Assembly: GCF_964355755.1 (NCBI RefSeq)
Contig: NC_092674.1
Coordinates: 12,586,001-12,650,000 of the forward strand
DNA from: Antedon mediterranea
Taxonomy: Eukaryota; Animalia; Echinodermata
Direction of reading: 5' to 3'
DNA: 64,000 nucleotides
Shown here: positions 1,271 through 60,661 of the stretch, one piece after another
How the letters are laid out: every line of letters starts with the position of its first letter
Position numbering within the stretch: position 1 is the stretch's first letter
Notes under the pieces: generated by a model
The model's database searches: none
What the model was told of the DNA's origin: nothing
The model's input: the letters and a program-made list of their open reading frames with translations, nothing else
Program-made: the position numbers and the translations under genes

Positions 1271-1369
1271 TTTGGCCTGAAGATCCAATTTAGCACCTTC
1301 CTTGAGCAAAATAGTGCAAACATCTGTGTGGCCGTTTTGTGCAGCCAAATGTAAAGGTGACCATCCATC
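1271..1369 (-). CDS. Ankyrin-repeat exon type A (DGWSPLHLAAQNGHTDVCTILLKEGAKLDLQAK)
   Basis: 99 nt; ctg (acceptor CAG) at 1370-1372, cttac (donor GTAAG) at 1266-1270; manual translation. Confidence 0.92.
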
Positions 1370-2656
1370 CTGAAATATTACAAACTATGTTATAGTAATT
1401 TTTCTCTAAACAAAATATTATAATATTGTCCTGAAATCAATACGATGTGATCAATTAAAAATGACATTATAGATTTAGATAATGCTACATTATTAAATTA
1501 AATCAAGAGTATCAGCCCTTGATGTTTTCTTGAAGATAATGTATTGTATATGTATACATTTGTCTTTCTTGTATAACATTTATTATATAAGTGCTTTATA
1601 AATCTATAAAACAAATAAGTGGGGTTTTTTTGCCTTAAAAATAAACACTTCATCCGATAGTGCTAACTAGTCTGAGTGTAAATTATGATAAACTGGCAGT
1701 TAGCTAAAATATCCATACTTTAAATTCTGTTCAGGTAACACATTTTGACTGCTAAATTCTTATCATTCATGGTTTCATTTTACCGTTACTTGGAGGGGAT
1801 ATGTTTTTTTAAATGTTTTATAAAATCAAATAAAAATCTCGATTCATATCTATTTATTTTATCATTTTGCATAAAATACAGTGTTGCTCTACAGTACCAT
1901 CCAAAAACAGAAAACTGAAAAAAAAACACGAAATATCATTCTCTAACATTCAGTGCCCTAAAGGCATATGGTAATGATTACAGAATCTATTACGAGAGGT
2001 GATGGACCTTTTCTTTGAACGTCAAAATAGTGCATTGGATAGGTTGGGTCCTCAGTAAAGTATCTTATAAAAATGAATACTGTAGTCCTATACGTGATGC
2101 ATAACTAACAATACGTTCCAGCTAATTCCTACATGTGGTCTTGGTAAACTATAAAACAAGGAATAATGAGAATACTTTCAATGACAGATTTATAAAAAAA
2201 AGATGTACAGTATGCATAATGTGACTTGTTTTATTGTTAAATAACTATGTAACTATGCATTTTTTGATAGGGATGTAATGGGATAAAACGATCAGCATTA
2301 CATTCCCTTTCCGATGGATGGATGGTTCAGTGTGGAATGTCGGCCATTTTAAAATACAAATGGCACCTAACTCTTTTGAATTCAGCAACTCAAGAATAAC
2401 AAAGTTAGCCAATAAAATCTATTTTGGCACACATATCGAGCTGGAGCTAGTTTTCCTTACATATATGTGACTGTATTATACCGTATCATAATGTAGTATA
2501 TTTTAAATTTTGACATGACATAATAAACATTGAAAGTTCTTTCTAACCTATTTTTTCTCGGGGTACGCGCCGCCGTCTTCTTTATATCTTGACATAGATT
2601 GTATATTGTTTTCAATAAGCCGTGCGGAGGATTCAGGTAATGTCTCTTAGTATTAA

Positions 2657-2694
2657 CAGGGAAGAGTTAAATTACGTAAATTAACTCTTCCCTG
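2657..2694. mobile_element. 38-bp minimal TIR element with 7-bp TSD
   Basis: CAGGGAAGAGTTAA...TTAACTCTTCCCTG perfect 14-bp inverted ends, flanked by GTATTAA on both sides; absent at paralogous site ~4845; copy at 41203..41240. Confidence 0.7.
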
Positions 2695-2731
2695 GTATTA
2701 AAGGCTAACACCGCGGCTTTAAAATGTATAT

Positions 2732-2880
2732 TATGAATATAGATTGCTGAACCACCACTCATTCGTCCAAGACGGGAATCATTTATTAAGTTGTCATTTT
2801 CAAGATCTATTATATTCGATTTATTGTCGTCAAACCATGTCTCTGACATTACAATTACTGTAAATGTATGACTTAATGAC
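2732..2880 (-). mobile_element. LINE AP-endonuclease N-terminal fragment
   Basis: ORF 2667..2951 contains VIVMSETW...SRLGRMSGGSAIYIHN, the ETW / GGxAIY motifs of LINE APE domains; copy at ~41278..41426. Confidence 0.65.
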
Positions 2881-3293
2881 GTTATTATTACATAGTACAG
2901 TAGACTATGTATAAATATTATAATGTACCGCGATGGTAAGCCGACTCGCAATAAAATTAATAATATTACAAGTAATATTTATTATTAATTTATAACGATT
3001 AAACAAGTTATTACAAAGTGTGACATCAGAAAACCTTGATTAATCTTACTTTACAATGTCAAGATTAACCTTGACGAGGCAGCGGTGTTCCGAACCATGT
3101 AAGGGGTACAACCGTGCAGTTCTCAACAATTTAGTCATCCTCGCAACAAAAAAATGATCTGTAAAAACCCGCGATGTTGTTGCTTCATTTAGGTATGTTA
3201 TTACTGGCACGCCCTTTAAATTGTAAAATTAAACACTCTTTTAATCACACTTAATTATTTAGTAATATTATTATTAATTTTTGTAAAACTTAC

Positions 3294-3392
3294 TTTGTCA
3301 TAAAGATCCAATTTAGCACCTGCCTTGAGCAAAACAGTGCAAACATCTGTGTGGCCGTTTTTTGCAGCCACATATAAAGGTGACGCTCCATC
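3294..3392 (-). CDS. Ankyrin-repeat exon type B (DGASPLYVAAKNGHTDVCTVLLKAGAKLDLYDK)
   Basis: 99 nt with canonical splice sites; inside ORF 3255..3467. Confidence 0.92.
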
Positions 3393-4150
3393 CTGAAATA
3401 TTACAAACATTATATTATAGTATTTTCTCTCTCTAAACAAAGTATTATAATATTGTTCTGGAATCAATACGATGTGATCATTTAAAAATGACGTTATAGA
3501 TTTAAATTATGCTACATAGTTAAATTAAATAAAGAGTATTGACCCTTTTCTTTAAGATAATGTATTGTATTGTATACATATACATTTTTTGTCTTTCTTG
3601 TAGGCCTATAACATTTTTTTACAGTGTTTTATAAATTTATAAAACAAATAAGTGTTTTTTTCTTTTTTGGCCTGAAAAGTAAACACTTCATCCGATAGTT
3701 CTAACTAGTCTGAATGTAAACTGACAGTTACAGCTAAAAATATATCTAGGCTCCAAATTCTGTTCAGGTAACATGACACTTTGACTGCAAAATTCTTACA
3801 ATGATTACGGAATCTATTACGAGAGGTGATGGACTTTTTCTTTGAACGTCAAAATAGAGCATTGGATAGGTTGGGTCTTGCAAAATTGAATGTGTTTCCT
3901 CAATAAAGTCTCTTATAAAAATGAATCAAATTGAGATTTGCTTAATTATTGTAAGTGAAGCATAACTAAAAATACGTTCCAGCTAATTCTTACATAGTGA
4001 ATAATGAGAATATTGTTAATGACAGATTTATAAAAAAAAGACTTAAGCCTATGGGAGGTTTAACTACAAAAGATTTAAGTCTACGGAAAAGTAAAGTCTA
4101 TTTGACGGTAGTGATTTATTTGCAATCTCAACTTCAGATTGGGTACTGTA

Positions 4151-4588
4151 CCGTATTTCATGATTTAGGTGATTTTCCTATTTTTGTTTGTTACTTTGGG
4201 TGGAATATACTGTATGGTACTGCAAATAAGTCAATCTATAATAATAACCCACTACTCTAATATTAACCCATGGGGGTTACTCTTAAAGTCACAAAAACAT
4301 ATGATACAGCTGTATTTTGAAAAAAAAGGAGATAATGCAGGTTGATCTTGGGAGTGGGGAAGGATTGAGTGTTTTTGAGTTCAAACAAATTTGTTTATTC
4401 GTACTGTTTTATTATTTTGCTATGAGTTGCTGACCAGAAAAGTTTGGGTGGGTTACTATTTTCAGGTGCCTAATTTAAGATTAGTAATAGTAACCCACTA
4501 CTCTAATAGTAACCTCCTTCCAATAGTAACTCACCCTAAAAAACAATCAAAGAATAATAACTGAGGGTTACAATTAGAAGATTTACGG
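4151..4588. mobile_element. Tc1/mariner-superfamily-like MITE
   Basis: TA|CCGTA...TACGG|TA termini; internal repeated motif taacccactactctaata; copy at 42697..43134. Confidence 0.5.
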
Positions 4589-5711
4589 TATATAGAGTAC
4601 TGCTAACCATAATAGTAGGTAACATTTGTTTTATTTGACACGACAAAACATGTGAACTCCCCAAAAAATTATATAATGTAGTATATTTTAAATGTTGACA
4701 TGACGTAATAAACATTGAAAGTTCTTTCTAACAGAGTTTTTATCTCGGTTACTCGGATGATGTACTTAATTTTTGTTTTATTTATATTTTTACATAAATT
4801 GTACATTGTTTTTCAATAAACAGTGCGGAGGATTCAGGTAATTTTTCTTTAAATGGTAACACCGCGGCTTTAAAATGTATATTTCTTATAACATATAAAC
4901 CCTTAAACAATATTGGTTATAACCGTTAATAATTTTAGACAGCACTCAGGCAAAAGCTAAATTGCTTCTTCAAAAAGAAGTTGTTTTATAAGACGATACC
5001 ACAGTACGGGTGTGAAGTGGAACTAATTCGCCTTAAAATACTAGTTTAAAAAATATCATAATTAATTAACCTTTTAAAAAGCTGATAATCAGAGATGTGC
5101 GCGCGTGCAATTTAACTATCTCAATGAATATTTATTTACTAAAGCTAAAATTATGTTTTCTATTAGAGAAACTTTGTTGTTATGGGAACATACTAAGTGG
5201 TTGGTGTAACTTCACACTAACGATATATTTAAACATTACATTAATTAGTCTCCTTTACATAGACCTTTGTCATAGGCGATGATTTGAAATTCAGATAGTT
5301 TTAGTATTGATATTATGTTACGGAGGTGTAGTAGTATGCTACATGCAATGTGGATTGTTGAACATTTTAATTTATTGATGATAAAAGTATATTATTATTG
5401 TAACCGAATTTGTCATGATTTACGATGAATTTAAATCAGTTTTTGCATCATGTTATAAGGTATAGTAGTATTATATTATTATTGTAACTGCATTGTTAAA
5501 GTTTTATAGAATACTGGTAAAATACTGGTAAGTAATGTCCCACACTCCACAACTAAATATGGCCATGCATTTAATACTGAACATTGGATAGATTTAAACT
5601 ATATGAAACTATTTTAACAATAATATTGTTTGTACATTATACGTATGATGTAGTGATTCTTTGTATGTCACTGAAATTAATGGTAAATGTACAATTTGTA
5701 AAGTGTCCCAT

Positions 5712-7100
5712 TGTCACAAGTGATTTAATTTTTGTTCCATTGTACCGTATGAGGGGGTCATTCATGCGTAGCGGCCTCTTATTGGATGATGGGTTGGTAT
5801 ATAAAGTGTGTGCGGGAACGGCGCGAGGTTGAAAACCAGGAGTTGGGAGTAAGCTGAGTGTTGCATTTCTTGATTGGCTGTGGCAAACTACTATTGTTGC
5901 ATTGATAAGTTGCTAAGCGGAGAAAATAAAGAAAACCACAAAGTAAGAGATATAGATATTTGATGCACACTCCAGCGATATTGTAGTCGTGTAATAAATA
6001 ACTCCTTAATTTCTAATCTGAGGTCTCTTTTTACGACTGTTAATTGAGTGGTAGGCTACATTGAAGAAAGGATTGACTAATTGAATTTATAACTAAAGGA
6101 CTCTGGCAACCAGAACACTTGTGAATACGGAATAGTAACGATATTGGAATTGAACGAGACGGAAAGGAAAAACTTACTAGGCCTACTAGTACGACACGCC
6201 ATTGAATTGGAGACATTAAAGAAAGACGTTAAAGAAAAGAAGGATGGTTACAGAAATAATGCGTGGAATGTTAAACACAACGGCTACTGGTGTGTGAAAT
6301 AGCCACCTGATTGGAACTTACATGGCATTATCAACGTGTAAATTTATTGTAATTATATATATGGAATAGATAGATGAATTATGAAATAACAAATATTATA
6401 TGTGTGGAAGAGAATAGAATAATGTACGAATTTAAGAAATAGCGTGAAACAAAGTTTTGTTATTATAAATATGGAATAGATACTGAATTATGAAATAACG
6501 AGTATTATATAATTATGTGAAAAAGAAACGAACATAAGACAAATTGATAAAATTAGTGGCTAAAATATATTAGAAGATGAATGATTTATAATCGAAGTAT
6601 ATAAGACGAGATAGAGAAAGTGTTGTATTAATTGGATCATAGAGAATGGGGATAGTATTTAAGAGGGTAATTCGAGATTTATATGATGAAATTAATTGAA
6701 TAATATTGTAAAGTGTAACGATGATGCAAGTATACGTATAGGGGAATTAGGGTAGAGTGTATTTGGAATAGAAGTAATTATTTATTTATTATTGTATTCA
6801 TTTATTTGTTTATTGTATTTAATTGGGGTTTGAGTATTAGGAAAGGGGTAAAGGCCATCTCTAGAGATAATTGAGGGAGTAAAGGGAACTTGTAAGATTT
6901 ATGTGTTTATTGTTAACGGGTATTTATTTATTAGATGTTATTGAATGGTTAAGTGTGAAACTTCATATGAATCCTCGTTTGAGCCTGAGGTATAAATGTT
7001 TAAAAGAAAAGGAAAAAAAAAAAATTAAAATAACGATAGAAGCTCTTGAAGTAATTTGTAATTGTTTTCTGTATAACTAAATTGGCAAGGTTTCGTGACA
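5712..7100 (+). repeat. 5' LTR (1389 bp)
   Basis: TGTCAC...GTGACA termini; TATA-like tatataaa ~5798, aataaa ~5993. Confidence 0.93.
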
Positions 7101-7104
7101 TTTA

Positions 7105-7121
7105 TGGGGGCTCGTCCGGGA
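7105..7121 (+). promoter_or_regulatory. Primer binding site complementary to tRNA-Pro 3' end
   Basis: TGGGGGCTCGTCCGGGA, 17 of the 18 nt of the canonical PBS-Pro TGGGGGCTCGTCCGGGAT, 4 nt after the LTR. Confidence 0.9.
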
Positions 7122-7216
7122 GAGTGCCAATTTAAAAAAAAAATACAGAAAAAAAATAACAGCATTTTAGTGTTCTTATTACAGATATTGAAAACGATAA
7201 GGCTACAGTGTGCATC

Positions 7217-10200
7217 ATGGATCTTGAAAGACTCGTCGAGGCTGGTAAGGCGTTGGGTTATAGTGGCATGGAATTGCGAGAGTTTGTCAGTGAGAGAGAG
7301 AAAAGTGAGGAATTTGAAAAGAAAGAAAAGCAGAAAGAGGAACGAGAGGAGAGGGCTCATCAATTAGAATTGCGCAGAAATGACCAACAGATATTAGAAA
7401 TGCAGTTAATGTTAGAAAAGGTTAAATTAGAGGGAGGGGACACTCCTCGAGTTAAAACATGCGACCCAAACACCAATAAGATAAATGCTCGAACTCCCAA
7501 GTTGCCCGCTTTCAATGAAGGAAAGGATGACCTGGATTCCTATTTGAAACGATATGAAAGGTATGCAGTTAGTCAGGGATGGAGTATTGAATACTGGGCT
7601 ATAAATGTAAGTGCTTTACTAACGGGAAAATCTCTCGAAGGGTATTCTAGACTTTCCACAGAGGATGCAGATAATTACCGGACATTGAAAACAGCACTTC
7701 TGAAAAGATTTCAGTTAACGGCAGATGGGTTCCGAAATAAACTTCGATTGGCGAAACCAGAGACAGGAGAAAGTGGTCATCAGTTCGCAGCAAGGATAGG
7801 AAATTATCTTACCAGGTGGATTGAATTGGCAGAAGCAACACAATCATATGATGGACTGAAAGACCTTCTATTGAGAGAGCAGTTTACTGATGGATGTGGT
7901 CGAGAGTTAGCGTTATTTCTTCGGGAACGTCAGCCAAAAACTATCGGTGAAATGGCTGATATTGCTGAGCAGTACCTAGAAGCACGAGGAGGTATGTTCG
8001 GAAATATAATAGCAGCAAAAAGATTGCCTACCACCACTCATAGACAGGTAACCCAAGAACCGGTACCCATCATTAATAATCCCCAAGTTAGGTCAAATCC
8101 CATTACTTGTTTTCTCTGTCATCGGGTAGGACATTTAGCAAGAAATTGTCGGGCCACAACTGCTTTTAAACCAAATACCGGCCTTACATGTTATAGATGT
8201 CATGGAAAGGGTCATTTGGCAAAAAATTGTAGACAAGATGTAGATAAGTGTGCTGGATTACGTAACCCATATAATGGTCCTCCTCATGAGGAACCCAAGT
8301 CTTTAATTTTACAGCAGGAACAATCCAATGGTACAGTTAACCCTAATCCTTTCCAAACCCCGGAAAATTGTGGAGGTATGATAATTAGTTCAAACCCTCA
8401 TAAATTGAATAGGTGTTGTATGGATAACAAATCTAGTTATGTAACTTTAAAATGTGGTAATCTTCTTCCTATCATGAGTGCAGCGTGGAAGGGATCTGGT
8501 CCAGGAAGTATGCCCGTTTCTCCTGGATTGGTTGGGCAACACAAGGTAACAGTCTTACGGGATAGTGGTTGCAATGGCGTTGTCATAAAACAGTGTTATG
8601 TATCCCCAGATCAATTTACTGGTAACGTGAAAACATGTGTGTTAATTGACGGTACTGTGAGAAGGCTGCCGCTTGCTACAATACAAGTAAATACTCCTTA
8701 TTTTACAGGTATGACTCAGGCGTTATGTATGGATAATCCAATTTTTGATCTTATATTAGGGAATATAGAAGGTGTTCAGTCTCCGGATGATCCCGACAAA
8801 ACGTGGACAGGACGAAACGTCCCAGCATGTGCAGTCACTACTCGGGCACAAGCTATAACACAATCAAAACCATTTAAATCACTCAAAACTCTAGAAGCAG
8901 TCGATCAAGTCATTACCGTTGAGAATTTAAGGAACGCACAAAATACAGATGTAACACTCCGAAAAGTGAAAGAACTGGCAGAAAATGAAGGTGTTCGCGT
9001 AAGTAAAAGTAACGCAACTTCTCATTTCTTCTATAAAAATAATCTTTTGTATAGGAAATTCAGCTCTCCGTCAGTTGAACATGGAAATATATTTACTCAA
9101 CTCGTTGTCCCAAAGTCTTTGCGACATCAAGTAATGCGACAGGCGCACGAATCATTATTAGGCGGCCATCAAGGTGCCAAGAAAACCACCGACAAAGTCT
9201 TAACGAACTTCTATTGGCCAGGGATAACCGCCGACATTACCAGATATTGCCGTTCCTGTGATATCTGTCAAAGGACCGTTCAAAAAGGTAGAGTAGCCAA
9301 AGTTCCTTTAGGTAATATGCCTTTAATCGAAGCACCATTTGAACGCATAGCTGTCGATATCGTTGGTCCAATTCATCCTATCTCTAAAAATAGAAATAGA
9401 TACATTTTAACTATACTAGATTTTGCTACCAGGTACCCGGAAGCCATCGCTTTACCAAGTATAGAAGCTGAACGTGTTGCGGAAGGTTTAGTCAAAGTCT
9501 TTTCTAGAATTGAAATTCCGAAGGAAATGCTGACGGATCAAGGGTCACAATTCACTTCAGAGGTGATGAAACAAGTATGCAAACTACTGTCTATTAAGCA
9601 AATGATGACTTCACCGTATCATCCGGCCTGCAATGGTCTTGTTGAACGATTTAATGGCACGTTGAAACAGATGCTAAAACGGATGTGTGCGGAACGACCC
9701 AGCGACCGGGATAGGTATATATATCCTCTGTTATTTGCCATTAGAGAGTTTCCACAAGAGAGTCTTGGGTTTTCACCCTTTGAACTTCTATATGGACGTA
9801 ACCTTCGAGGCCCTATGACCATTTTAAGAGAGTTATGGACAGGTGAAGTTCACACGCCAGAAACCAAGAACACTTATCAATATGTTGTAGACTTAAAGGA
9901 ACGATTGAACGAAACGTGTGCAGTTGCACAAAAGAATCTACAAAAAGCAAAAGGGAGATACAAGAAGTATTACGACAAGAAAAGTCGAGCACGAGAATTC
10001 CAAGTAGGTGATAAGGTTTTGCTTTTACTTCCAACTGACCGAAACAAACTTCTACTTCAGTGGAAAGGCCCGTTTCCAATCATAGATAAAATGGGGTATT
10101 TAGATTACCGCATAGATCTGAATGGGAAGTTAAAAACATTTCATGCAAATCTTCTTAAACGATATCATGAACGTCAAGATGTATCTGGAGCCGCGCTAGC

Positions 10201-11760
10201 TGAGTTCCAATCGGATGTTTCACAGGGGGCGCTGGAAGTAGCATGTACTTCAGTAATCGAAAGTGAGGATATGGTAAGTGATGCTCCAATTGCTTTACAA
10301 ATGACCAATGATAACCTTTTGCAGCTTCATCCTTTGCAGGCTAAAGAAACTATCGCCGATGTCCACATTAGTGACGATTGTGATGAAATGGGTAGAAAAG
10401 AGGTAAAACGTCTTATTGCAAATTATAGGGACGTTCTCACAGATTTACCGGGTAAAACCACTCTGGGCAACCATGACATAAAACTTCGTACAGATGAGCC
10501 TATTCGAACCAAACCATACCCATTACCACACGCATTGCGGGATACAGTGAAAGATGAAGTGAGTATGATGTTAAACATGGGGGTAATTGAACCATCATGC
10601 GCTCCATGTGTTTCTCCAATTGTTTTGGTTAAAAAACCGGATGGATCAAATAGATTCTGTGTGGATTTCAGGAAGGTGAACCAAAGCACCGTGTTTGATG
10701 CAGAACCAATACCTGACCAAGATGAGTTATTTACAAAATTAGCCACTGATAATTATTTCACAAAACTAGATCTTAGTAAAGGTTATTGGCAGGTACCGAT
10801 GGATGAACGTTCCAAACAACTTACATCATTTGTAACGCCCAACGGTTTATTCCAATTTAAAGTTATGCCCTTTGGTTTGGTAAACGCCCCGGCTACGTTT
10901 AGTAGAATAATGAGGAAATTACTTCATGGAATGAAAAATACCACAAGTTATATCGATGATATCTTAATACATACATCTTCTTGGGAAGAACATTTAACAA
11001 TTCTAAAAGAATTATTTCGTCGTCTACGAGCAGCTAATTTAACAGCAAGACCAAGTAAGTGTTTCATCGGATACGAATCTATTGAATTTTTGGGCCATGT
11101 TGTTGGGAAGGGTCATCTGAAACCACGACCTGAGAAAATTCAAAGCATCGTTCAAGCAAAACGACCAGAAACCAAAAAGCAACTGCGATCATTCCTAGGA
11201 ACAACTAATTATTATCGTCGGTTCATACCACACTATTCTGCTATTGCGTCTCCATTGACGGATCGAACGAAGAATCAAGAACCAAACAAGATACGATGGG
11301 AGGTAAGTCAAGAAAATGCCTTCAAAACACTTAAGTCAAAACTAACCAGTAAACCTATTCTTTGTCTACCAGATTTAAGTAAACCGTTTATTCTGCGAAC
11401 AGACGCCTGTGACGAGGGAATCGGAGCAGTGCTCCTTCAAAATTATGGAAATGAAAAATTCCCTGTGGCTTATGCCAGCAAGAAGTTACTACCCCGGGAA
11501 AAAGCGTACTCTATTATGGAGAAGGAATGTTTATCAATAATTTGGGGTGTACGTAAGTTTGAAACATACCTATATGGTCGAGAATTTACCTTAGAAACTG
11601 ACCATCAACCCCTTGTTTACATGCAAAAAGCTAAATTAGCGAATGGTAGAATAATGCGCTGGGCACTGGCGCGCTCCAGCCATACAGGTTCCGAATTGAA
11701 GCTATCAAAGGTAGCGATAACGTAGGTGCGGATTATCTCAGCCGCAGTTCATGTAGTTAG
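7217..11760 (+). CDS. Gag-Pol polyprotein: SCAN-like capsid region, 2 CCHC knuckles, aspartic protease, integrase, RT, RNase H; 2-bp frameshift near the C-terminus
   Basis: ATG at 7217; CFLCHRVGHLARNC and CYRCHGKGHLAKNC; LRDSG; HHCC + VDIVG/TDQG/VERFN + WKGPF integrase; LDLSKGYWQ, YIDD RT; TDAC/EKE/TDH RNase H. An extra CG at ~11672-11673 shifts the frame; the native tail LQPYRFRIEAIKGSDNVGADYLSRSSCS* ends at 11760. Confidence 0.93.
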
Positions 11761-11788
11761 AAAATGTATATCCCCATACATTGTTCTT

Positions 11789-11809
11789 GAGTGGGGGGGG
11801 GGGGGGAAA
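11789..11809 (+). promoter_or_regulatory. Polypurine tract
   Basis: gagt-G14-aaa immediately before the 3' LTR. Confidence 0.85.
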
Positions 11810-13110
11810 TGTCACAAGTGATTTAATTTTTGTTTCATTGTACCGTATGAGGGGGTCATTCATGCGTAGCGGCCTCTTATTGGATGATGGGTTGGTATAT
11901 AAAGTGTGTGCGGGAACGGCGCGAGGTTGAAAACCAGGAGTTGGGAGTAAGCTGAGTGTTGCATTTCTTGATTGGGTGTGGCAAACTACTATTGTTGCAT
12001 TGATAAGTTGCTAAGCGGAGAAAATAAAGAAAACCACAAAGTAAGAGATATAGATATTTGATGCACACTTCAGCGATATTGTAGTCGTGTAATAAATAAC
12101 TCCTTAATTTCTAACCTGAGGTCTCTTTTTACGACTGTTAATTGAGTGGTAGGCTACATTGAAGAAAGGATTGACTAATTGAATTTATAACTAAAGGACT
12201 CTGGCAACCAGAACACTTGTGAATACGGAATAGTAACGATATTGGAATTGAACGAGACGGAAAGGAAAAACTTACTAGGCCTACTAGTACGACACGCCAT
12301 TGAATTGGAGAAAGACGTTAAAGAAAAGAAGGATGGTTACAGAAATAATGCGTGGAATGTTAAACACAACGGCTACTGGTGTGTGAAATAGCCACCTGAT
12401 TGGAACTTACATGGCATTATCAACGTGTAAACTTATTGTAATTATATATATGGAATAGATAGATGAATTATGAAATAACAAATATTATATGTGTGGAAGA
12501 GAATAGAATAATGTACGAATTTAAGAAATAGCGTGAAACAAAGTTTTGTTATTATAAATATGGAATAGATACTGAATTATGAAATAACGAGTATTATATA
12601 ATTATGTGAAAAAGAAACGAACATAAGACAAATTGATAAAATTAGTGGCTAAAATATATTAGAAGATGAATGATTTATAATCGAAGTATATAAGACGAGA
12701 TAGAGAAAGTGTTGTATTAATTGGATCATAGAGAATGGGGATAGTATTTAAGAGGGTAATTCGAGATTTATATGATGAAATTAATTGAATAATATTGTAA
12801 AGTGTAACGATGATGCAAGTATACGTATAGGGGAATTAGGGTAGAGTGTATTTGGAATAGAAGTAATTATTTATTTATTATTGTATTCATTTATTTGTTT
12901 ATTGTATTTAATTGGGTTTTGAGTATTAGGAAAGGGGTAAAGGCCATCTCTAGAGATAATTGAGGGAGTAAAGGGAACTTGTAAGATATTTATTTATGTG
13001 TTTATTGTTAACGGTTATTTAATTATTAGATGTTATTGAATGGTTAAGTGTGAAACTTCATATGAATCCTCGTTTGAGCCTGAGGTATAAATGTTTAAAA
13101 GAAAAGGACA
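11810..13110 (+). repeat. 3' LTR with ~85-bp subterminal deletion
   Basis: Matches the 5' LTR but jumps gaaaagga>ca just before the TSD. Confidence 0.92.
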
Positions 13111-13662
13111 CCCATATCGTATCTTTATGTGTTTTCAGTATGCTGTTATTTACGTACCTATAGAGCAACACCTTCCCCGCGATTATGTGTACATTTAATG
13201 AAGAAAGAACAATACTTAAAACTGTTACGTAAAAAAGGCGAGCGGCGTTTATTGTATGTAATATTTTAGATTAGTTAATATTATCAACATGCACAAGTAC
13301 CTTAAATTGAATTCTACAATGTAAAGGATTCCAATGAAAAAAAAATGGTCCTGCTCTAAAACGTAGTGACAACTCAAATACGAGTTATTTTGTAAGATCT
13401 TGCTTGAAGGTATCCATTGCTTTAAAAGACAACGAAAGTCAATATTAACCTTGACAAGGCACCGGTGTTCCGAACCATAATTATGTGAGAGGTACGACCG
13501 CCGTGCAGTTATCGACAGTACAGTCATCCTCGCTACAAATTACAGTGTCTATAATATGACCCGCATTGTGGTTGGTTTATTTACCTATATTATTACCGGC
13601 ACGCCCATTAAATCACACTGAATTATATAGCACCAGTTATTAATAATATTTGTAACACTTAC

Positions 13663-13761
13663 ATTGTTTGGAAGATCCACTTTAGCACCTGCCTTGAGCA
13701 AAATAGTGCAAACGTCTGTGTGGCCCTCTTGTGCAGCCACATTTAAAGGTGACCATCCATT
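13663..13761 (-). CDS. Ankyrin-repeat exon type C (NGWSPLNVAAQEGHTDVCTILLKAGAKVDLPNN)
   Basis: 99 nt with canonical splice sites; inside ORF 13585..13776. Confidence 0.92.
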
Positions 13762-14830
13762 CTGAAATAATAACAAACATCATGTTATTGTAGTAGTAGT
13801 AGTAGTAGTAGTATAGTCTTCTCCAAAAAGCTAATTAATATTGTATTGAAATTGTTTCGATGTGATCAAGTAAAACTAGCTTAAAAGCCAGGTGAGGGCA
13901 AACAAATTCTATTGATCTTGCATTCCCCTATGTTTCATAATGTTTGTGATGTTATGTGTGTTACACGAGCTTGTTGAAAATATGCACTTTATTATCAGTG
14001 GTGGATAGTTCAAATTACAATAAAATCTCTATTCATTTGTACACAAATGTTGTAAATAGAGAGACAATTTAAAAAAAATCTAAAAATAAACAGTGTGGTA
14101 AAAATGTTATCAGAGGACTAAATATAGATAATACTTCATAGTTTTATTTTCATGCTATAGTAAAATTATCCACCGTATATCCACCACCTTTTTTCACCTT
14201 CTATAGAGTCACCAGACATGTAATTAAACTAGGTTAAACTACTTAACTACTGAAAAAAGTCTTCCTGGTTTTTATAACAGAATGTTACCAAATTTTGTAT
14301 TTGACCATTTTAAGGGAAATCCATGTGTTTTCGTCTTGATGTCTATTACTATATATTATTTGATTTATGTACAATTAACAAGATATTATATTTAAAATTC
14401 ATGCCTGTATCTAAGCTTTAACTTAAATAAAGATTATTAACCTTTGATGTTTTCTTAAAGATAATGTATTGTATATACATGCATTTGTTTTGCTTGTATA
14501 CTATTTTGTTATATAGTATAGTACGGTACTTTTGTACGTAGCATTTATATACTGCAAATTTGGTAAGATGTTGTGGTCCTTAATATGAAAGATGGCACTA
14601 GTTCTGCTGTCAGTTATTTTGCTACAATTATCAAAGAACCTATAGATACAGTGCACTGATTGGGTAATAGAATAATGTAGTTTGATGACTACGGTTAGTG
14701 TAATTTTGCGACAGTTGAAAACTTCAACATTTAAGTTTTTTTGTTGGAGACATTGATATACCCACTGTCATATCTTACTTCTTACTTGAATCTTTGGGCT
14801 TTTAAACGCCCTCCATTTCTTCTGTATTTA

Positions 14831-18089: not shown

Positions 18090-18091
18090 CA

Positions 18092-46202: not shown

Positions 46203-46301
46203 ATTGTTTGGAAGATCCACTTTAGCACCTGCCTTGAGCAAAATAGTGCAAACGTCTGTGTGGCCCTCTTGTGCAGCCACATTTAAAGGTGACCATCCAT
46301 T
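46203..46301 (-). CDS. Ankyrin-repeat exon type C (copy)
   Basis: Same sequence as 13663..13761, splice sites intact. Confidence 0.9.
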
Positions 46302-49300
46302 CTGAAATAATAACAAACATGTTATTGTAGTAGTAGTAGTAGTAGTAGTATAGTCTTCTACAAAAAGCTAATTAATATTGTATTGAAATTGTTTCGATGT
46401 TAAAAGCCAGGTGAGGGCAAACAAATTCTATTGATCTTGCATTCCCCTATGTTTCATAATGTTTGTGATGTTATGTGTGTTACACGAGCTTGTTAAAAAT
46501 AGGCACTTTATTATCAGTGGTGGATAGTTCAAATTACAATAAAATCTCTATTCATTTGTACACAAATGTTGTAAATAGAGAGACAATTTAAAAAAATCTA
46601 AAAATAAACAGTGTGGTAAAAATGTTATCAGAGGACTAAATATAGATAATACTTCATAGTTTTATTTTCATGCTATAGTAAAATTATCCACCGTATATCC
46701 ACCATCTTTTTTCACCTTCTATAGAGTCACCAGACATGTAATTAAACTAGGTTAAACTACTTAACTACTGAAAAAAGTCTTCCTGGTTTTTATAACAGAA
46801 TGTTACCAAATTTTGTATTTGACCATTTTAAGGGAAATCCATGTGTTTTCGTCTTGATGTCTATTACTATATATTATTTGATTTATGTACAATTAACAAG
46901 ATATTATATTTAAAATTCATGCCTGTATCTAAGCTTTAACTTAAATAAAGATTATTAACCTTTGATGTTTTCTTAAAGATAATGTATTGTATATGCATGC
47001 ATTTGTTTTGCTTGTATACTATTTTGTTATATAGTACGGTACTTTTGTACGTAGCATTTATATACTGCAAATTTGGTAAGATTTTGTGGTCCTTAATATG
47101 AAAGATGGCACTAGTTCTGCTGTCAGTTATTTTGCTACAATTATCAAAGAACCTATAGATACAGTGCACTGATTGGGTAATAGAATAATGTAGTTTGATG
47201 ACTACGGTTAGTGTAATTTTGCGACAGTTGAAAACTTCAACATTTAAGTTTTTTTGTTGGAGACATTGATATAGGCCTACCCACTGTCATATCTTACTTC
47301 TTACTTGAATCTTTGGGCTTTTAAACGCCCTCCATTTCTTCTGTATTTAACTAGAATTGGTACTCATAAATTTCAGGGCATAAATAATCATATGGCAATA
47401 CAATTACGTGCGTAGCGCATGTAACGCATGCGTACGCGCGCTTAAAATTGTCAAAATTTATTTTCGATGAAATAAGAGTACATTTCAGGCAATTTTAAGC
47501 GTTTACAAAATTGCCATGAGTGCGCATATTTTTGCGCGCGCACTGCGCGTTAAATGTTATTGCGTACTCTTTTTGCCCGATTTCTGTTTTCTTGACTTAC
47601 TTTTCAACTCGAAATTACGTTATACGAGCACGTCGAAAGTGACAGGCTACGCACGTGTAAATTAAAAAAATATAAATGTTTTTAAACATTTCAACATTTT
47701 TAAACATGTTCAGTAATTTCGGTCAGTATAGTTCACTATGTTGGTCGGTCTGTCTGTCTGTCGGTCTGTCGGTCTATCTGTCGGTCTATCGGTCTGTCTG
47801 TCGGTCCGGTATCACTATGCATTGTAGCACGCGACTTAATGGCTGTTGGCCTTGTTCTTTTTAAGATGTTCAATTCTAATATAATTAATACTGACAATTT
47901 ATTTAATATTCCTGTGATATTTCTGTGATTAGTTCTTTAGTTCTTTTAAATATGTCTACTATAGTCTTTCTTCAGGTTGATGTACTTATATTTCCATCCT
48001 TACCTTCTTATATAAGCAATTATTATTAATTATTATCACTAGATAGTACGCGAGCGAAGCGAGCATACCTTCTAGGTCGTGTCCACAGATAGTTCTCAAA
48101 TACACAGTAATTCCAGCGTAAAAAACTGGCGATTTTAAATGTACTTACCGAAGGACTATAAATACATTGTCGTTTTCCGAAACGAATAAATAGACACGAT
48201 GATTAATGTAGTCAACTAAAATTAACACCCATGGAATTAGGCCTACTTCAGAAGGAGAAACTTGTCTTAAAAATGAGTCCAATTTTTTTATTTTAACTCA
48301 TTTAAACAAACCCAATTTGTGTTTTGTATATACATTAGAGTTGAGGGATGGGGAAGAGGATGGGAAGATCAATTTTTAAACAAATTCTTTATCCACTCAG
48401 TAACGAAATATCGTTTTAAATGTTTTATAGGCCTATCAATAATATACCACTAAACAAAGTAAAACATTTACGATTTAATACTTTTTTAAAACTGTCCCTT
48501 TTATAGTCGATTGAAATAGTAAAGTACATGTAACGATACACCACTACGACGTTTATATTTTTATAATTATTAATTAATACAAACGTTGAGAAGCAACTCT
48601 CAGTAATACAGTTTTTATTTGTGTATTATGTGTTTATATATCCAGCAGTAGAGCCTACCCACAGTCACAGTAATAAATGTTCTTTGTATATGTGTTTATA
48701 TATCTAACAGTAACCACATTCACAGTAAGAAAATATTTGTAACAGAAATCAAGACGAAAAAACATGAATTTCCCTTAATATGGTCGAATACAAAATATGG
48801 CAAAATTCTGCCATAAAAACCAGGAAGACTTTTTTTCAGTAGTTAGGTCTTGATATATTCGTAACGTACGCATATTCAAATGAACCAAATTCACTAGAAT
48901 TTAGTAAGGAAGCAAGTTTTAGATTCGTCTTAAAAATATCATATCATCGCATCCCATCCTATTACTATTGAAACCGAATTGAAACATTTTAACAAGCTTT
49001 TTATGATGGTCACACACATCGTCAGATCTATGTATAGTAATGAGAAATATACAAACAATGATGTTGTTGTGATATCGGGGTGGGTGTTTGGGGAAGGCAT
49101 TTGTTGGTAACATTAATTTCATAATAAAATAAATTCACCTAGATATGAACAAGTACAATACTGTATTTTGTATTATCAATAAGTGATAACAGTAAACAAT
49201 TGTATGAAAATAATTGTTAAATAGATATAACAGTTAATCAATTATTCAACATAATATAATTATATTTGTGTTATAATAATACAGAATTGTGTGTATAAAT

Positions 49301-51189
49301 ATATATGGGTGGCGTGGCGTTTATTAGAGGGTGGAGGTTGAATATACCAAAGATGTTTTATGGGGGAGAGGGCGTTCGTATCTCGGGTCTCAACGGCGAT
49401 AAATGCAGATAGCGCGCAACCTGTTCAAATCTAACATCAACTCAACAACTCGGCTACCATTCGGCTATATCGAGATTTTACCTGATTTAAAATACATCTA
49501 TGATTACAGCTATAATCAGTTCTCCCGATGTAGGCATATACCCCGTTTATGATATTTAAAATTGTATATACTGATTTTAAAATTTACCCGCAATATAATT
49601 CGATGATGTTTTAATATAATTGATTTGTTGATCGTTTTTTTGCACAAACAAAAATGTGATGTGCCCATATATGGACATGATGATGTCATATAATTACCAA
49701 ATTACCAAATTTTGGGCACACTAATGTTATAGTGTAGACAGCTTGGAATGTTACGCGTGGCCGTAAACAAAACTCATAAATTTCAGGGCATAAATCATCA
49801 TATGGCAATACAATTACGTGCGTAGCGCATGTAACGCATGCGTACGCGCGCCTAAAATTTTCAAAATTTATTTTCGATGAAATAAGAGTACATTTCAGGC
49901 AATTTTAAGCGTTTACAAAATTGCCATGAGTGCGCATATTTTTGCGCGCGCACTGCGCGTTAAATGTTATTGCGTACTCTTTTTGCCCGATTTCTGTTTT
50001 CTTGACTTACTTTTCAACTCGAAATTACGTTATACGAGCACGTCGAAAGTGACAGGCTACGCACGTGTAAATTAAAAAAATATAAATGTTTTTAAACATT
50101 TCAACATTTTTAAACATGTTCAGTAATTTCGGTCAGTATAGTTCACTATGTTGGTCGGTCTGTCTGTCTGTCGGTCTGTCGGTCTATCTATCGGTCTATC
50201 GGTCTGTCTGTCGGTCCGGTATCACTATGCATTGTAGCACGCGACTTAATGGCTGTTGGCCTTGTTCTTATTAAGATGTTCAATTCTAATATAATTAATA
50301 CTGACAATTTATTTAATATTCCTGTGATATTTCTGTGATTAGTTCTTTAGTTCTTTTAAATATGTCTACTATAATCTTTCTTCAGGTTGATGTACTTATA
50401 TTTCCATCCTTACCTTCTATCACGTAAAGTATTAAGAGTACACGCCGGTTCATGTGCGCCATATTATTGCTCATATATTCTTTACTAAAATAATTTTGCA
50501 AGCACGTTAATGTATTGATTCAACATTACTTTGTTTATCAATATTGGGTTGTATATTCATATGAAGTAATAATATTAACAAGGTCAACACTCGGGAAACC
50601 AAATTTTCTGGAAAAAAGCAATGGATTTGATACTGCATGACATTTTTTTCTGTTATTAACCATAATAGGAAGTAAAAATAAAATGTCAACTATTGCTATA
50701 TTTTGGGGTTAAAGGTCACGTCACCAAATACAGGCCAAAAATATCAAAAAATCATATTTTTTAAATAAAACCATTAATACAATTAACTAGAGAATGTAGA
50801 GGCCCGTTGTGTTAAGAAAGCCGAAAAATATCGTGCATAGCCATAATACGTGATTTTGGCCCTCTATCGGCAGAACCTCCCGTAATCGGCCACTTTTCAA
50901 TTTCATAAAATAAGGCAATTAATAGGAGTTGATACCTTAGTGGTTATAACAGCCCAGGTCTATAGTCTACTTTAGTTAAGTATGGTCAACAACATGAATT
51001 CCAGAAAAGTGAGTGCTAAATTAAACTAAATTTGAACTTATCAAGCCCACATTTTTTTCGCAAATACTGTAGGAGCAAATCCAAGCCTAAGCAACTGAAG
51101 AAAAGATATTTAGGCCTAGCCTAGATGTCATAAGTAAGCCCATTAATTACAATTTATCACGGTTGGTTTCTTCGGAAAATAGAGAACTC

Positions 51190-52064: not shown

Positions 52065-53360
52065 TAATAGTAAAAAGAACTTGAAACGAATTGTAAACGT
52101 CTGTCCAGCATTAGAGATAATGTTAAAATTCTCTTCTTGAAAGAGGTAATAGGTGCATGGAGTAATTTTATTTCTATTCATTATCCAAAGTCTGTTGACG
52201 AGCTATTACGAATGCAAATTTGGAATAATGAAGTAATAAGAATAGGCAACGAATGTATAAGATATGGAAATTGGGAAAAAGCAGGTATTCTGTTTGTTAA
52301 TGATTTGTTTAACAGCAATGGGCAATTTATGAATAAAAAAGAAGTCGAAGATACCTATGGAATTAAGATAAATTATATAAAATTAATAGAATTAAGAAGG
52401 CTTCTGATGGAAAAGTTTAACAATTTAATGATATGTGAAATAAAAAAAAACAGTTTTGCCAGATATTTCATTTCATATAAAAAGTACTCTTTCAACAAAG
52501 AAAGGGATATCGTATTTTTTATGATGTTTTAAATAACTCAATGTTTAAATCATGGAAATCACAAAAGAAATAGGCAGAGAATAAATTTGTATTCAATAAC
52601 GAACAATTGAAAACTAATCTACCTAGCTCCATAATATACGTGTACAATGAATATTGTTTTAATATATTTTCAATATAAAATTCTAAACAGAATAATTGCA
52701 ACAAATTATTTAAAATGAATATAAAAGAAACTTCAATGTGCTCATTTAGAGATGGTAAAATCGAAACCAATTAGCATTTGTTCTGTAATTGTCCAATAGT
52801 AAAAAGGATATGGAACCTTCTCCAGGAAACAATTTCAGAAAAAACTGGAGTGCAATTTATTTTTAGTAAAGAGAGCATAATTTTTGGATACCAAGATGCG
52901 CATCAGTTTTTTAATTTAAAAGCCATTAATGCAATTATTCTAATTGTAAAATCATTTATTTATAAATGTAAACTAGTTAAACGTAAGCCAAATATCAAAA
53001 TGGTTATGAACAACCGATTCAGTGTTTGTATTTACTCTATATAGCGCCCTCTATAATACTCTATAATAATATGTATGTTAAAAGTACAGCATTTATGCAG
53101 ACAGCATACGTTTGCTGATAGTCATACAGATACATACCTATTGACAGTAGCAGAATCGGGTGTTATGAAACGGAAAAATGTATTTATCATCAGAATTTCC
53201 AGGTCAGTATTTTAAATAGAAAATGGATAAAATTAGAAGCATTTATAAATCAGATGGATATCTTTGTTGTTTTTGTTTGATTTTTATTTTTTATTTGATT
53301 ATGTTTTTCCTTTGTAATGTATTATATGATGAAAAAAATAAATCAATAACAAAATAAAAA
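52065..53360 (+). mobile_element. 5'-truncated L1/Tx1-like LINE
   Basis: IWNN..I..G...W..AGI..VNDL and HLFCNCP..K.IW motifs; A-rich tail; 13-bp TSD AATAGTAAACAAC (52052-52064, 53361-53373). Confidence 0.75.
53011..53162. mobile_element. 152-bp MITE nested in the L1/Tx1 fragment
   Basis: CAACCGATTC...GAATCGGGTG ends (9/10 inverted match), 7-bp TSD TTATGAA; a related end lies at ~54373-54396. Confidence 0.65.
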
Positions 53361-53811: not shown

Positions 53812-54060
53812 TATGAGTGAGAATCAATAAGGCATTTAATTAAAATGCAGACCGTCTTAAATTACATTGACATGTTCCGATAAATATATTCTCATCATCA
53901 GAACTGTAATCAAAGCCTAGAGTACTTGTATACGTACAAAGTTGCGTTTAAATGAGTCAATAATTAGTATGAGAATAGATTTATCGAAACATGTCACGTA
54001 ATTTTAAGACGGTCCACATTTTCATTAAATGCCTTATGATATTATTGATTATCAATCGTA
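53812..54060. mobile_element. Foldback MITE with ~85-bp imperfect TIRs
   Basis: aatcaataaggcatttaat...tattctcat mirrored by atgagaata...attaaatgcctt...ttgatt; TA at both ends. Confidence 0.65.
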
Positions 54061-55812: not shown

Positions 55813-57065
55813 GTATCAGAACGTACCAGTTCCAGAAACGGATGAAATACGAATTTAATTAAGTATTAAAGCAAACATAACAACGGACGATGATTAATTG
55901 ATAGTTGTCCCACTACACAAATACAAGGACCGGGAAAATCCAGCAAACTATCGCCCAATTACTCTATTATCCATTTTTTGTTAAAATATTTGAAAGAGAT
56001 TGGGTAGAATAAGAGAAAGGGTAGAAATGGAACAAATTATATCAGAGGAACAGGCGGGCTTTAAGAATAAGTATAGTACGATTGATAATACTTTTATACT
56101 TCAAACATAATCAATAAAGCATTACAAAAAAGGGGAAAACGCTATAGTGTGTTTGTAGATTTTAAACAGGCTTTTGATCGTGTGGATAGATCAATTTTAA
56201 TAAATTAAATAAGTTAAACCTTCTTGTAAACTTAATTGAACTCTTGATATCTATGTACACGAACACTGAAATAAAATGAAAACGCTGCATGGTTTAACAG
56301 ATGCAATATAATGTAGTATAGTATTAAAGCAAGGATGTCTCCTCTCTCCTCTTCTTTTCACTCTTTTTATATGATTTTAAAGACATTTTACAGAGGGAAA
56401 ATAACCACTACTGTTTAATAAATAACAATGTAATTTCACACTTATTATTTGCAGATGATCTAGTTTTGTTTTCATATTCTAAAGTTGGTCTACAAAGGCA
56501 AATAAATTGTCTTGTAAAATATTGCAATGTAAATAAGTTAGAAATAAATAAGTTAAAAACTAAAGCTTATGGTGTTCCGAAATGGTGGGGATGAAAAATG
56601 GTACATAAATGATGTCAATATAGAAATAGTAAAAGAATATAAATATTTAGGTTTTTATTTTAATAATAAGGTGGATTGGAACACGATGAAAATTAAACAG
56701 GCGGAAAATCACGCTTTACATTATCGTGCCATAATCTGTTGATTGAAAAGGGGCGACATTTAAAAATTAACCGAGAGTCTAGAATATGCATGTTTTGTGA
56801 TCAATTAAGTTTATAAGATGAAGAACATTTTCTTTTTTACTGTCCTTTTTATAAAAACACTAGAAAAAAATATATGTCTGATTTAAATGTATACATGTTA
56901 AAACATGTTTATAAACAATGAAACCCAAAAAATTAAGTCTTTGCAACCTATTTATGTAAAGCTTATGAAAAGAGAAAAACATGTATTTCCGAAATTAATA
57001 TAGATTTTATTATGTGAAATGGGCCGGAGGCCACTGTTTATTGAAATAAAAAGAAAGAAAGAAAG
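55813..57065 (+). mobile_element. RTE-X-like LINE, degenerate RT to 3' tail
   Basis: NYRPITLL, EEQAGF, FVDFKQAFD, KQGCLLSPLLF, LFADDLVL and C-terminal Cys/His motif; (AAAG)n tail; clade assigned from motifs only. Confidence 0.7.
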
Positions 57066-60000
57066 TTGGTCTATACATCAGCGTAGTACAGAAACGGCTT
57101 TGTTAAAAGTCAAAACATATATTCTCCACAACTTTGCCCACAGGTTGCGTGCTTATAAGCAATAATTGATACATGTCATCCGTGTTCGACACAGTGGACC
57201 ATACAGTTTTAATTAATAGATTATCTAATGAGTTTGAGTATCAAATTTGGTGCTATAAATTGAATTGAATCATGTTTAGACAATCGATGTTACAAGGTCA
57301 AATTGTTGGGTTGTGAATCTGTAAAAACAAAAATTAAAGTCGGTGTCCCACAGGGGTAAACAATTAGCCCGGCATTTTTTACAGCGTGTACTAGACCTAT
57401 TGCCGATATTATAAAGTTTCATAATGTTGGGTATCATCTATATGCTGATGATACCCAACTTTATTCAAATTTTGATCCTAAAATAGCCGGTGATTTAGAA
57501 GTGTCTATTTTTTTAGATTAATAATCTGTATCAAAAAACTTAAAATATGGATGTGTAAAAACAAACTTACGCTTAATGAGCAAAAGACAGAACTTTTAGT
57601 TTTGGTTCCAATAAAGGTTAATATTAATGATAGTAACATTGAACTTAATATTGGTGGTAACATTCTGAAACCATCAGATACCGTTACGAATCTTTGATAC
57701 AGACCTTAGCATGACACCTCATATTAATATGATTTGTATATGACTTCTATATCTTTATATATTTATATTTTCCTATATGTCATTTTTCATTGAGATTTCT
57801 ATTTTTATATCTTAAAATTGTAACAAAATATGTTAAGCGCTTTGATCAACTATAGCGCTATATAAGCAATTATTATTAATTATTATCATTAGATAGTACG
57901 TGAGCGAAGCGAGCGTACCTTCTAGGTCGTGTCCACAGATGGTTCTCAAATACACAGTAATTCCAGCGTAAAAAAACTGGCGATTTTAAATGTACTTACC
58001 GAAGGACTATAAATACATTGTCGTTTTCCGAAACGAATAAATAGACACGATGATTAATGTAGTTAACTAAAATTAACACCCATGGAATTAGGCCTACTTC
58101 CGAAGGAGAAACTTGTCTTAAAAATGAGTCTAAGTTTTTTTATTTTAACTCATTTAAACAAACCCAATTTGTATATAACACTAAAGTTGAGGGATGGGGA
58201 AGAGGATGGGAAAATCAATTTTTAAACAAATTCTTTATCCACTCAGTAACGAAATATAGTTTTAAATGTTTTATAAAGGCCTATCAATAATATACCACTA
58301 AACAAAGGCAAACATTTACGATTTGATACTTTTTTTTAAACTCTCCCTTTTATAGTCGATTGAAATAGTAAAGTACATGTAACGATACACCACTACGACG
58401 TTTATATTTTTATAATTATTAATTAATACAAACGTTGAGAAGCAACTCTCAGTAATACAGTATTTATTTGTATATTATGTGTTTATATATCCAGCAGTAG
58501 AGCCTACCCACAGTCACAGTAATAAATGTTCTTTGTATATGTGTTTATATATCTAACAGTAACCACATTCACAGTAAAAAATCGATTCTAATGGTGAACA
58601 AAAATGGGTAATACGTATTTACAATATTTCTAAAGTATTGCAATATTATATCTCAGTTTTAAGTTTATTCTCCAAGGGCCCATACATTTACCTACAAATT
58701 GGGAGTCTGAGAGATTGGAATGTTCTATTCATCGCAAATCAATACATTTGTATAAACGTATATTAAATCTAACAAAATAGTATTTTTTTAAAGAAAATCG
58801 GTCTGTCTTCAACATTATGAGACTGTACTCGAGCTGTTCAACCGGTTTTCAGCTATTAAAGCTCAGGTACAAGCATGAATTTTAAATATAATATCTGGTT
58901 AAGTACATACATGAACTATTTGTAACAGAAATCAAGACGAAAAAACATGAATTTCTCTTAAAATGGTCGAATACAAAATATGTCAACATTCTGCCATAAA
59001 AACCAGGAAGACTTTTTTTCAGTAGTTATGTCTTGATAGATTCGTAACGGACGCATATTCAAATGAACCAAATTTACTAGAATTTAGTAATGAAGCAAGT
59101 TTTAGATTCGTCTTAAAAATATCATATCATCGCATCCCATCCTATTACTATTGAAACCGAATTGAAACATTTTAACTAGCTTTTTATGATGGTCACACAC
59201 ATCGTCAGATATATGTATAGTAATGAGAAATATACAAACAATGATGTTGTTGTGATGTCGGGGTGTGGGTGTTTTTGGGGAAGGAATTTGTTGGTAACAT
59301 TAATTTCATAATAAAATAAATTCCCCTAGATATGAACAAGTACAACACTGTATTTCGTATTATCAAGAAGTGACAACAGTAAACAATTGTATGAAAATAA
59401 TTGTTAAATAGATATAACAATTAATCAATTATTCAACATAATATAATTATATTTGTGTTATAATACAGAAGTGTGTGTATAAATATAATGTGGGTGGCGT
59501 GGCGTTTATTAGAGGGTGGAGGTTGAATATTCCAAAGATGTTTTATGGGGGAGAGGGCGTTCGTATCTCGGGTCTCAACGACGATAAACGCAGATAGCGC
59601 GCAACCTGTTCAAATCTAACATCAACTCAACAACTCGGCTACCATTCGGCTATATCGAGATTTTACCTGATTTGAAATACATCTATGATTATGGCTATAA
59701 TCCGTTCTCCCGATGTAGGCATAGACCCCGTTTATGATATTTAAAATTGTATATACTGATTTTAAAATTTACCCGCAATATAATTCGATGATGTTTTAAT
59801 ATAATTGATTTGTTGATCGTTTTTTTGCACACAAAAAATGTGATGTGCCCATATATGGACATGATGATGTCATATAATTACCATATATGGGCACATTAAT
59901 GTTATAGTGTAGACAGCTTGGAATGTTACGCGTGGCCGTAAAAAAAAAACATTGGAGGGGAGCAAAAACTCGGAAGTCGCAAAATAGTATTAGTGAAACG

Positions 60001-60562
60001 CGTAATAACATTGCAGTAATATTTATTAATTCATAAAGTTTATGAAATAATCAAATTAAAATAATTATTACAAAGTGCGACAGACAGTTATTACAAAGTG
60101 CGACAGCTCGATTACTACAAGTGCGACACAGTACAAACGGGGTTTACAGATAGTAATTATATGCGATGTGTCTTTTTTAAGACAGTACTTATCAGGAATG
60201 GACCCTATTTGTGTCTTTTGTTGCATTTCGGGATCATTCATTTGAAAATAATATTAAGTTCTGTGGTGAGATCTTACTTGGTGATTCAGGGCTTTAAATG
60301 ACCGGCACTTAAAAACTGTCTTTGATTTATCTTACTTCCCAATGTCAAGATTAACATTGATGAGGCAGCGTTGTTCCGAATTACGTGAGGGGTACCGTGC
60401 AGTTCTCGACAATACAGTCATCCTCACTACAAAGTAGGCCTAAATTGGTTCATTTAGGTATGTTATTACCGATACGCCTTTTAAAAATTGTAAAATTAGC
60501 ACTTTGTTTTAATCACACTGAATTATATAGCACATATTATTATTAATGTTTGTAGCACTTAC

Positions 60563-60661
60563 ATTCGTCTGAAGATCCAAATTAGCACCTGCCTTGAGCA
60601 AAATAGTGCAAATATCCGTTTGGCCCTTTAGTGCAGCCACATATAAAGGTGATGCTCCATT
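60563..60661 (-). CDS. Ankyrin-repeat exon type D' (NGASPLYVAALKGQTDICTILLKAGANLDLQTN)
   Basis: 99 nt, canonical splice sites; differs from D by V17I, E32T and one silent change (GCG>GCA). Confidence 0.92.

Follow-up and report, generated by a model that had tools for sequence, protein, structure and literature searches.

A recently duplicated and re-ordered array of ankyrin exons in the crinoid Antedon mediterranea, likely of a Death/Roc sensor family

How does an animal gene come to carry a row of ankyrin repeats, each on its own exon and many of them identical, and does such a row generate diversity? The question is raised by a 64,000-nt stretch of the genome of the crinoid Antedon mediterranea (contig NC_092674.1, positions 12,586,001 to 12,650,000), which we call the window. 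An earlier note, made from the sequence letters, had proposed that uniform exons whose junctions cut through a binding loop could give a repertoire of isoforms by alternative splicing or by unequal recombination. Our preferred answer, which we consider probable while holding it with some reserve, is that the window shows the middle of an ankyrin array with one repeat per exon, which has grown through recent tandem duplication of exon-intron blocks, and that this array probably serves a crinoid sensor, an ankyrin-(Death)-Roc GTPase, as its variable binding module. We also add three points to the note: the gene lies on the minus strand, there are only five distinct exon sequences, and the junctions are where ankyrin genes usually have them.

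A motif scan of the window ([CT]AG, 99 nt, GT[AG]AG) gave stop-free matches on the minus strand in 10 of 10 cases and none on the plus strand. In the order of the gene, the ten exons are at 60563-60661 (type A'), 46203-46301 (B), 41840-41938 (C), 39821-39919 (D), 30775-30873 (A), 29496-29594 (D, the same as exon 4), 20452-20550 (A, the same as exon 5), 13663-13761 (B, the same as exon 2), 3294-3392 (C, the same as exon 3), and 1271-1369 (D, the same as exon 4). By translation, each encodes one ankyrin repeat. All ten are 99 nt long and phase 0-0, with acceptors ending in tatttcag and donors reading gtaagt, as the note had described; these splice sites are near-identical, canonical, and equally strong. 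Exon D, the one type of the five that was scanned, matches Pfam Ank at 41 bits (cut-off 21.1, E=1.6e-10), and a profile built from all five types matches ankyrins and designed ankyrin repeat proteins (DARPins) in the PDB. When we searched both strands of the window with four of the exon types (tblastn), we found no ankyrin exon beyond these ten intact ones, and no inverted, orphan, or inactivated ankyrin exons within the introns.

The exon order is A'BCDADABCD. Copies of B, C, and D show 0 nt difference within each type, A' and A are 4 nt and 2 amino acids apart, and any two repeats in the window are 64-100% identical. Both window ends are homologous to the D-A intron, so the array probably runs beyond both of them, and further exons likely lie outside. 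Ten is the right number for the window, but it is probably not the full count for the gene, which the note had taken to have ten exons.

Together, the nine junctions comprise the six types of the note and no others: QTN/NGW, PNN/DGA, YDK/DGW, QAK/NGA, QEN/DGW, and QEN/NGW (the slash marks the splice cut). In the numbering of PMC4308713, beta-turn 1 takes up positions 1-5 of the repeat, and the cut separates its consensus positions 2 and 3. The note had placed the cut in a beta-hairpin. The turn is indeed cut, but in a structure model of an Antedon relative, P0396, the cut falls in an inter-repeat loop four residues before helix 1, where DSSP assigns no strands; this is a single-sequence model with a mean confidence (pLDDT) of 52 overall and about 70-90 over the repeats. 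The exon starts NGA, NGW, DGA, and DGW are all present (codons 1 and 3, e.g., at 39911-39919). Five exon ends and four starts could form 20 junction triplets, of which six are already adjacent in the window.

Much of this is commonplace. Mouse Ank3 has exons of 99 or 198 nt, many of which start with ag/AATGG or ag/GACGG (PMC4449188, Table 2), and Ank3 transcripts that lack ANK exon 16 or 18 have been described; in the heart, two of the 99-nt exons are skipped (PMC4449188). All 10 window exons start one codon before the conserved Gly, which is the register of Ank3. Because mouse Ank3 shows the symmetry, the split turn, and the occasional skipping, these are general features of ankyrin genes and say nothing special about this one. 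The note had allowed that one-repeat exons are common in ankyrin genes, which Ank3 bears out. Its argument that the exon anatomy permits diversity is correct in that skips stay in frame, but it carries little weight, given the likeness to Ank3 and the limit of 20 triplets.

So the exon layout is ordinary, and the unusual feature is the youth of the array. Canonical ankyrin genes share with it the one repeat per 99-nt exon, the exon starts, and, in Ank3, single-exon skipping, but the window repeats are 64-100% identical and their introns were copied along with the exons. The repeats of a vertebrate ankyrin-2, in contrast, are diverse among themselves and have 11-17 of 33 residues in common with the window exons. 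Also, canonical ankyrins (ANK1-3) carry ZU5-UPA after the repeats, whereas the Antedon relatives of the window end in Death/Roc: we found no ZU5 match in the three nearest of them, and two continue into Death/Roc. The ends of the window gene itself lie beyond the window.

How did the array grow? Self-comparison of the window reveals at least three rounds of tandem duplication, nested and several kb in size, in which introns were copied together with exons. The duplicated blocks fall at 0.03%, 0.4-0.9%, and 3.0-3.4% substitutions. The youngest (19764-40414) consists of two 10.3-kb copies (19764-30089 and 30087-40414). Each carries one D exon and one A exon, and the two are 99.95% identical, differing by 3 substitutions (0.03%) and one 2-nt indel. 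An older duplicate of the B-C-D block occupies 1-19824 and has 0.4-0.7% substitutions (1-7100 corresponds to 38551-45644, 13107-15489 to 45641-48008, and 18062-19824 to 48009-49771). The duplicate around exon A' (56568-64000) has 3.0-3.4% substitutions near the exon and 0.8% further out; as its end matches the D-A intron, we predict a further D exon near 69,000, outside the window. Repeat exons have thus been gained and re-ordered recently in this genome. A GTCT/GTCG microsatellite lies in three of the duplicated intron segments (15220-15287, 47739-47806, and 50154-50216).

The breakpoint of the youngest duplication (30075-30095) joins the C-D intron to the A-B intron across about 4 nt of microhomology. 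This creates an A-D intron of 1180 nt and with it a new junction, QEN/DGW, from a pair of exons that is absent from the ABCD period. The note's idea that recombination makes new exon neighbours is therefore borne out by the 10.3-kb duplication. Its route is not, at least for this event: the breakpoint joins non-homologous intron positions, so unequal crossing-over at flanks that match did not produce it. Overall, genomic shuffling of the array in the germline is supported.

A skeptic might ask if the youngest duplicate and its A-D junction are an assembly error, given that the copies are so similar and that the breakpoint lies outside both of the stretches that were checked against sequencing runs. 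We consider this improbable. The copies do differ, the join has the form of a microhomology join between non-homologous intron positions, and an xEN/D junction is present in one public run (X5, discussed next), though with a different synonymous codon. Furthermore, the older duplications are independent of the youngest block.

Eight public runs from two organisms contain part of the stretch. None of them is recorded as RNA; X5 is labelled "RNA?". We aligned X1, X2, X5, X6, and X8 to parts of the window; the word shares of X6-X8 are small. We did not take contig depth as copy number. Around exon D, the depth in X5 is 818-5717 on the exon versus 5-120 beside it, and a 99-nt go-back joint occurs in X5 only and is absent from three other runs. 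We read X5 as spliced RNA in which exons of the array family are joined in series, exon to exon, in 99-nt steps. (X5 also covers introns, so it includes DNA or pre-mRNA as well.) The exon family is expressed and spliced. Among the X5 junctions listed, we translated nine rows by hand. Three of them (K/NGA, PNN/DG, and xEN/D) fit adjacent window exons and equally fit skips. The other six (PNN/K, QRN/N, QNK/N, TTN/N, PAN/N, and PAN/D, the last two from a mixed consensus) need ends or starts that are absent from the window, so the exon family must be larger than the window's five types. X2, X6, and X8 have 115, 94, and 78 contigs on one 281-nt stretch, several with their own flanks, and the 17 in-exon differences among those listed are at codons 3, 4, 6-8, 11, 12, 17, 19, 24, 27, 32, and 33.

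Is the array, then, a splicing repertoire, in which each animal makes combinatorial isoforms by skipping exons? Every skip would keep the frame, and ten exons allow 719 distinct products. The splice sites hardly differ, mouse Ank3 has transcripts that skip individual ANK exons (PMC4449188), and in X5 the same end is joined to different starts (PNN to D or K, and PAN to N or D, the latter in the mixed consensus). Nevertheless, the six rows just listed come from other genomic copies, the three others fit adjacency as well, and none proves a skip; because the contigs are short and not assignable to a locus, X5 does not separate skipping from other genomic copies. Equal strength of all the splice sites also argues against it, as does the lack of a shared complementary docking sequence among exact 12-mers within 250 nt of five exons, where we saw only scattered AT-rich 12-mers (with no chance control). 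We think a splicing repertoire rather unlikely. In arthropod Dscam, tandem-duplicated exons also encode a variable binding surface, and one exon per cluster is used by mutually exclusive splicing. The array is not a cluster of the Dscam type because its exons are joined to each other, both in the X5 contigs and in Antedon gene models, which carry 2-3 array exons in series; nor was a docking sequence seen among those 12-mers.

The runs also bear on the idea that exon cassettes are rearranged somatically, as has been proposed for brown-algal ROCO genes and as happens in lamprey variable lymphocyte receptors. The exons are modular and have conserved flanks, and in-register DNA joints between units are among those listed in public runs (40241 to 42265, 39767 to 46148, and 30925 to 39971). 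We rejected these joints as proof of recombination: their sides are only 20-48 letters long, with a likeness of 88%, and could equally belong to genomic copies elsewhere. The window lacks the inverted and orphan exons of Ectocarpus (PMC3341825), and the sole breakpoint that is resolved is an ordinary microhomology join. Somatic rearrangement therefore seems very improbable to us.

What kind of gene is this? Searching with exon A gave 14 matches among 40 candidates, and three of these are from Antedon mediterranea itself (P0396, P0398, and P0401). Seven repeats in these three proteins share 24-28 of 33 residues with exons of the window, while other proteins reach at most 21 of 33 (120 + 145 further proteins were compared). 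We rejected the top Mytilus and insect profile matches as orthologues; they rank by repeat number, stay within that limit of 21 of 33, and are generic long ankyrin proteins. All three Antedon relatives are fragmentary, with read-through into an intron at one end: the first residues of two of them translate the acceptor flank found in the window, in frame, and the last residues of one translate its donor flank. The gene models are therefore broken within arrays of this sort. In P0398, an N-terminal cap precedes the array repeats. In P0401, the repeats are followed by a cap, a Death domain (E=1e-10), and the start of a Roc-like P-loop (E=0.008, 16.9 bits). In P0396, they are followed by a cap and a partial match to Roc (E=1.8e-5, 25.4 bits). 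By this family resemblance, the array likely forms the front part of an ankyrin-(Death)-Roc protein, though this is not certain.

Do the exons differ where a binding surface would? Across the five types, 18 of 33 residues are invariant. Among types A-D, the proportion of nonsynonymous sites that differ (pN) is 0.151 overall and that of synonymous sites (pS) is 0.067, and pN is 0.40 at six turn/helix-1 codons versus 0.087 elsewhere. The six-codon set is that of DARPin design, and a second set of positions comes from PMC4308713. With the DARPin set, the clustering of changes at turn/helix-1 has p=0.024 for the window exons alone, and with the seven Antedon repeats pooled, p is 0.0016 for the DARPin set and 0.0045 for the PMC4308713 set. 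(A nine-position face set holds 16 of 22 changes, but it was chosen after viewing the data and we do not count it.) With only four types compared, we regard diversifying selection on the face predicted to bind as likely, though unproven. Of the 12 informative sites in a mosaic test, 8 favour the grouping AB/CD and two codon-3 sites conflict with it; a two-base change at codon 3 that is at odds with this grouping is a weak hint of gene conversion.

Several points weigh against a diversifying sensor. Aligned flanks differ at 0.123 of sites (189 of 1539), and overall pN is close to this, which is why positive selection is not proven. The published position set, with the five window exons alone, gives only p=0.061. 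Non-framework positions are expected to vary in any ankyrin. Relaxed selection, too, lets young repeats diverge quickly (PMC5120217). Neither Roc score reaches the Pfam cut-off of 27 bits, and COR is not seen in P0396 or P0401, whose models both stop inside the Roc region. As the 64-kb window contains no N-cap, Death, or Roc sequence, the array is linked to Death/Roc by family rather than by contiguity. Finally, the immune sensing role of the array is putative.

The array could instead be neutral or relaxed-selection churn in an unstable, repeat-rich region, with no sensing role and with symmetric exons that merely tolerate the turnover. Transposon pieces and interspersed repeats crowd its introns, its overall pN is near the flank divergence, the three annotated Antedon relatives are fragments, and relaxed selection is general in young repeats (PMC5120217). 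On the other hand, each of the ten exons has an open frame and intact splice sites, more than half of the residues have stayed invariant, the exon family is transcribed and spliced, and changes cluster on face positions. We take churn seriously but consider it unlikely.

We therefore return to the duplicated binding module. Tandem duplication of exon-plus-intron blocks has extended the array in frame. In this model, the parts of the gene beyond the window would include an N-cap exon, a C-cap, and Death and/or Roc domains, on the pattern of the Antedon fragments, which share its exons and splice flanks. Diversity would be inherited, as copy number, order, point changes, and perhaps conversion, rather than made in each cell, and the inherited repeat number, order, and face residues may tune the binding surface. 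By analogy with candidate immune sensors, a non-self ligand on the concave face could switch the Roc domain, and the Death domain could recruit partners. Judged from sequence, the array is likely a fast-evolving sensor. A bolder version would make it a natural DARPin library: an ankyrin-Death-Roc immune sensor family whose exon number and order vary between individuals and are remixed further by exon skipping, and the first animal counterpart of the shuffling ROCO receptors of brown algae. We doubt that all of this holds together.

Close parallels are the LRR-ROCO and NB-ARC-TPR genes of brown algae (PMC3341825, PMC11378527), which also have equal-length one-repeat exons, recent exon duplication, and a variable ligand face, and a Roc domain is likely downstream here too. 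The window array differs in being ankyrin rather than LRR and in belonging to an animal, with a Death domain in one relative and no COR seen in the models. The algal arrays have inverted and orphan exons, whereas this window has none (PMC3341825). Also, positive selection and splice variants have been demonstrated in brown algae, while for the window the former is likely but unproven and the latter are putative. Fungal NLRs (PMC4986451) likewise have homogenised ANK repeats, with variable sites on the inner helices and hairpin and changes in repeat number. However, their repeats follow NACHT/NB-ARC, repeat-number polymorphism between isolates has been demonstrated for them, and the window repeats are each on their own exon among kb-long introns.

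Long, near-identical ANK arrays that vary at the same positions also occur in a Mytilus CARD-nSTAND3-ANK protein and in insect NACHT(-like)-ANK proteins (P0002, P0122, and P0121), but these differ in having a STAND NTPase N-terminal to the repeats and in sharing at most 21 of 33 residues with the window exons. The proteins of mosquito (P0121), beetle (P0122), and mussel (P0002) combine a STAND-type NTPase with about 17-54 homogenised ankyrin repeats, and they may be unrecognised NLR-like sensors. ROCO genes with Death or CARD domains are expanded in Trichoplax (PMC4104024), and Roc-COR is found in TLR and MyD88-like proteins of Aplysia (PMC9334734). That the window gene is itself a ROCO gene is unproven. 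We found no description of a crinoid array of this kind in the open-access literature (main texts, mostly by listing; a mention may exist in supplementary gene tables that accompany crinoid genome papers).

The introns also hold other repeats. A long terminal repeat (LTR) retrotransposon on the plus strand (5712-13108) lies in the second B-C intron, and its open reading frame (7160-11725) encodes a Gag region with a SCAN-like match, a zinc knuckle, and an integrase that precedes reverse transcriptase and RNase H. This order of domains matches Gmr1-like Ty3/gypsy elements. Its right LTR is missing about 85 nt near the end, and its integrase region is 97% identical to an Antedon mediterranea protein, with the next named matches in echinoderms; with the three gene fragments, this agrees with a source in Antedon. 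The first B-C intron has a solo LTR at the corresponding site (44261-45645, plus strand), with a 5-nt target-site duplication. Because the solo LTR sits at the same site in the duplicated intron, the LTR insertion predates the B-C-D duplication. The empty-site form of the solo-LTR locus is seen in runs X1, X2, and X5. Broken plus-strand frames that resemble the reverse transcriptase of non-LTR retrotransposons (25648-27442 and 35973-37767) were copied with the 10.3-kb block. A 152-amino-acid open frame at 52074-52532 (plus strand) may be another fragment of a non-LTR element, and an imperfect inverted repeat of about 210 nt and 75% identity (53827-54037) is possibly the relic of a small DNA transposon.

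The exon layout that was flagged at first is standard; what is unusual here is a young, re-ordering ankyrin exon array that likely belongs to a crinoid Death/Roc sensor family. Such a family would escape immune surveys that are based on annotation because gene models break inside the arrays, as they do in 3 of 3 relatives. The array also provides a clean test case in an animal for inherited exon duplication versus splicing as the source of diversity. And if it does belong to the ankyrin-Death-Roc genes, then echinoderms would have a candidate family of intracellular sensors that diversifies like the repeats of brown-algal ROCO proteins or fungal NLRs, with the ankyrin exon as its unit.

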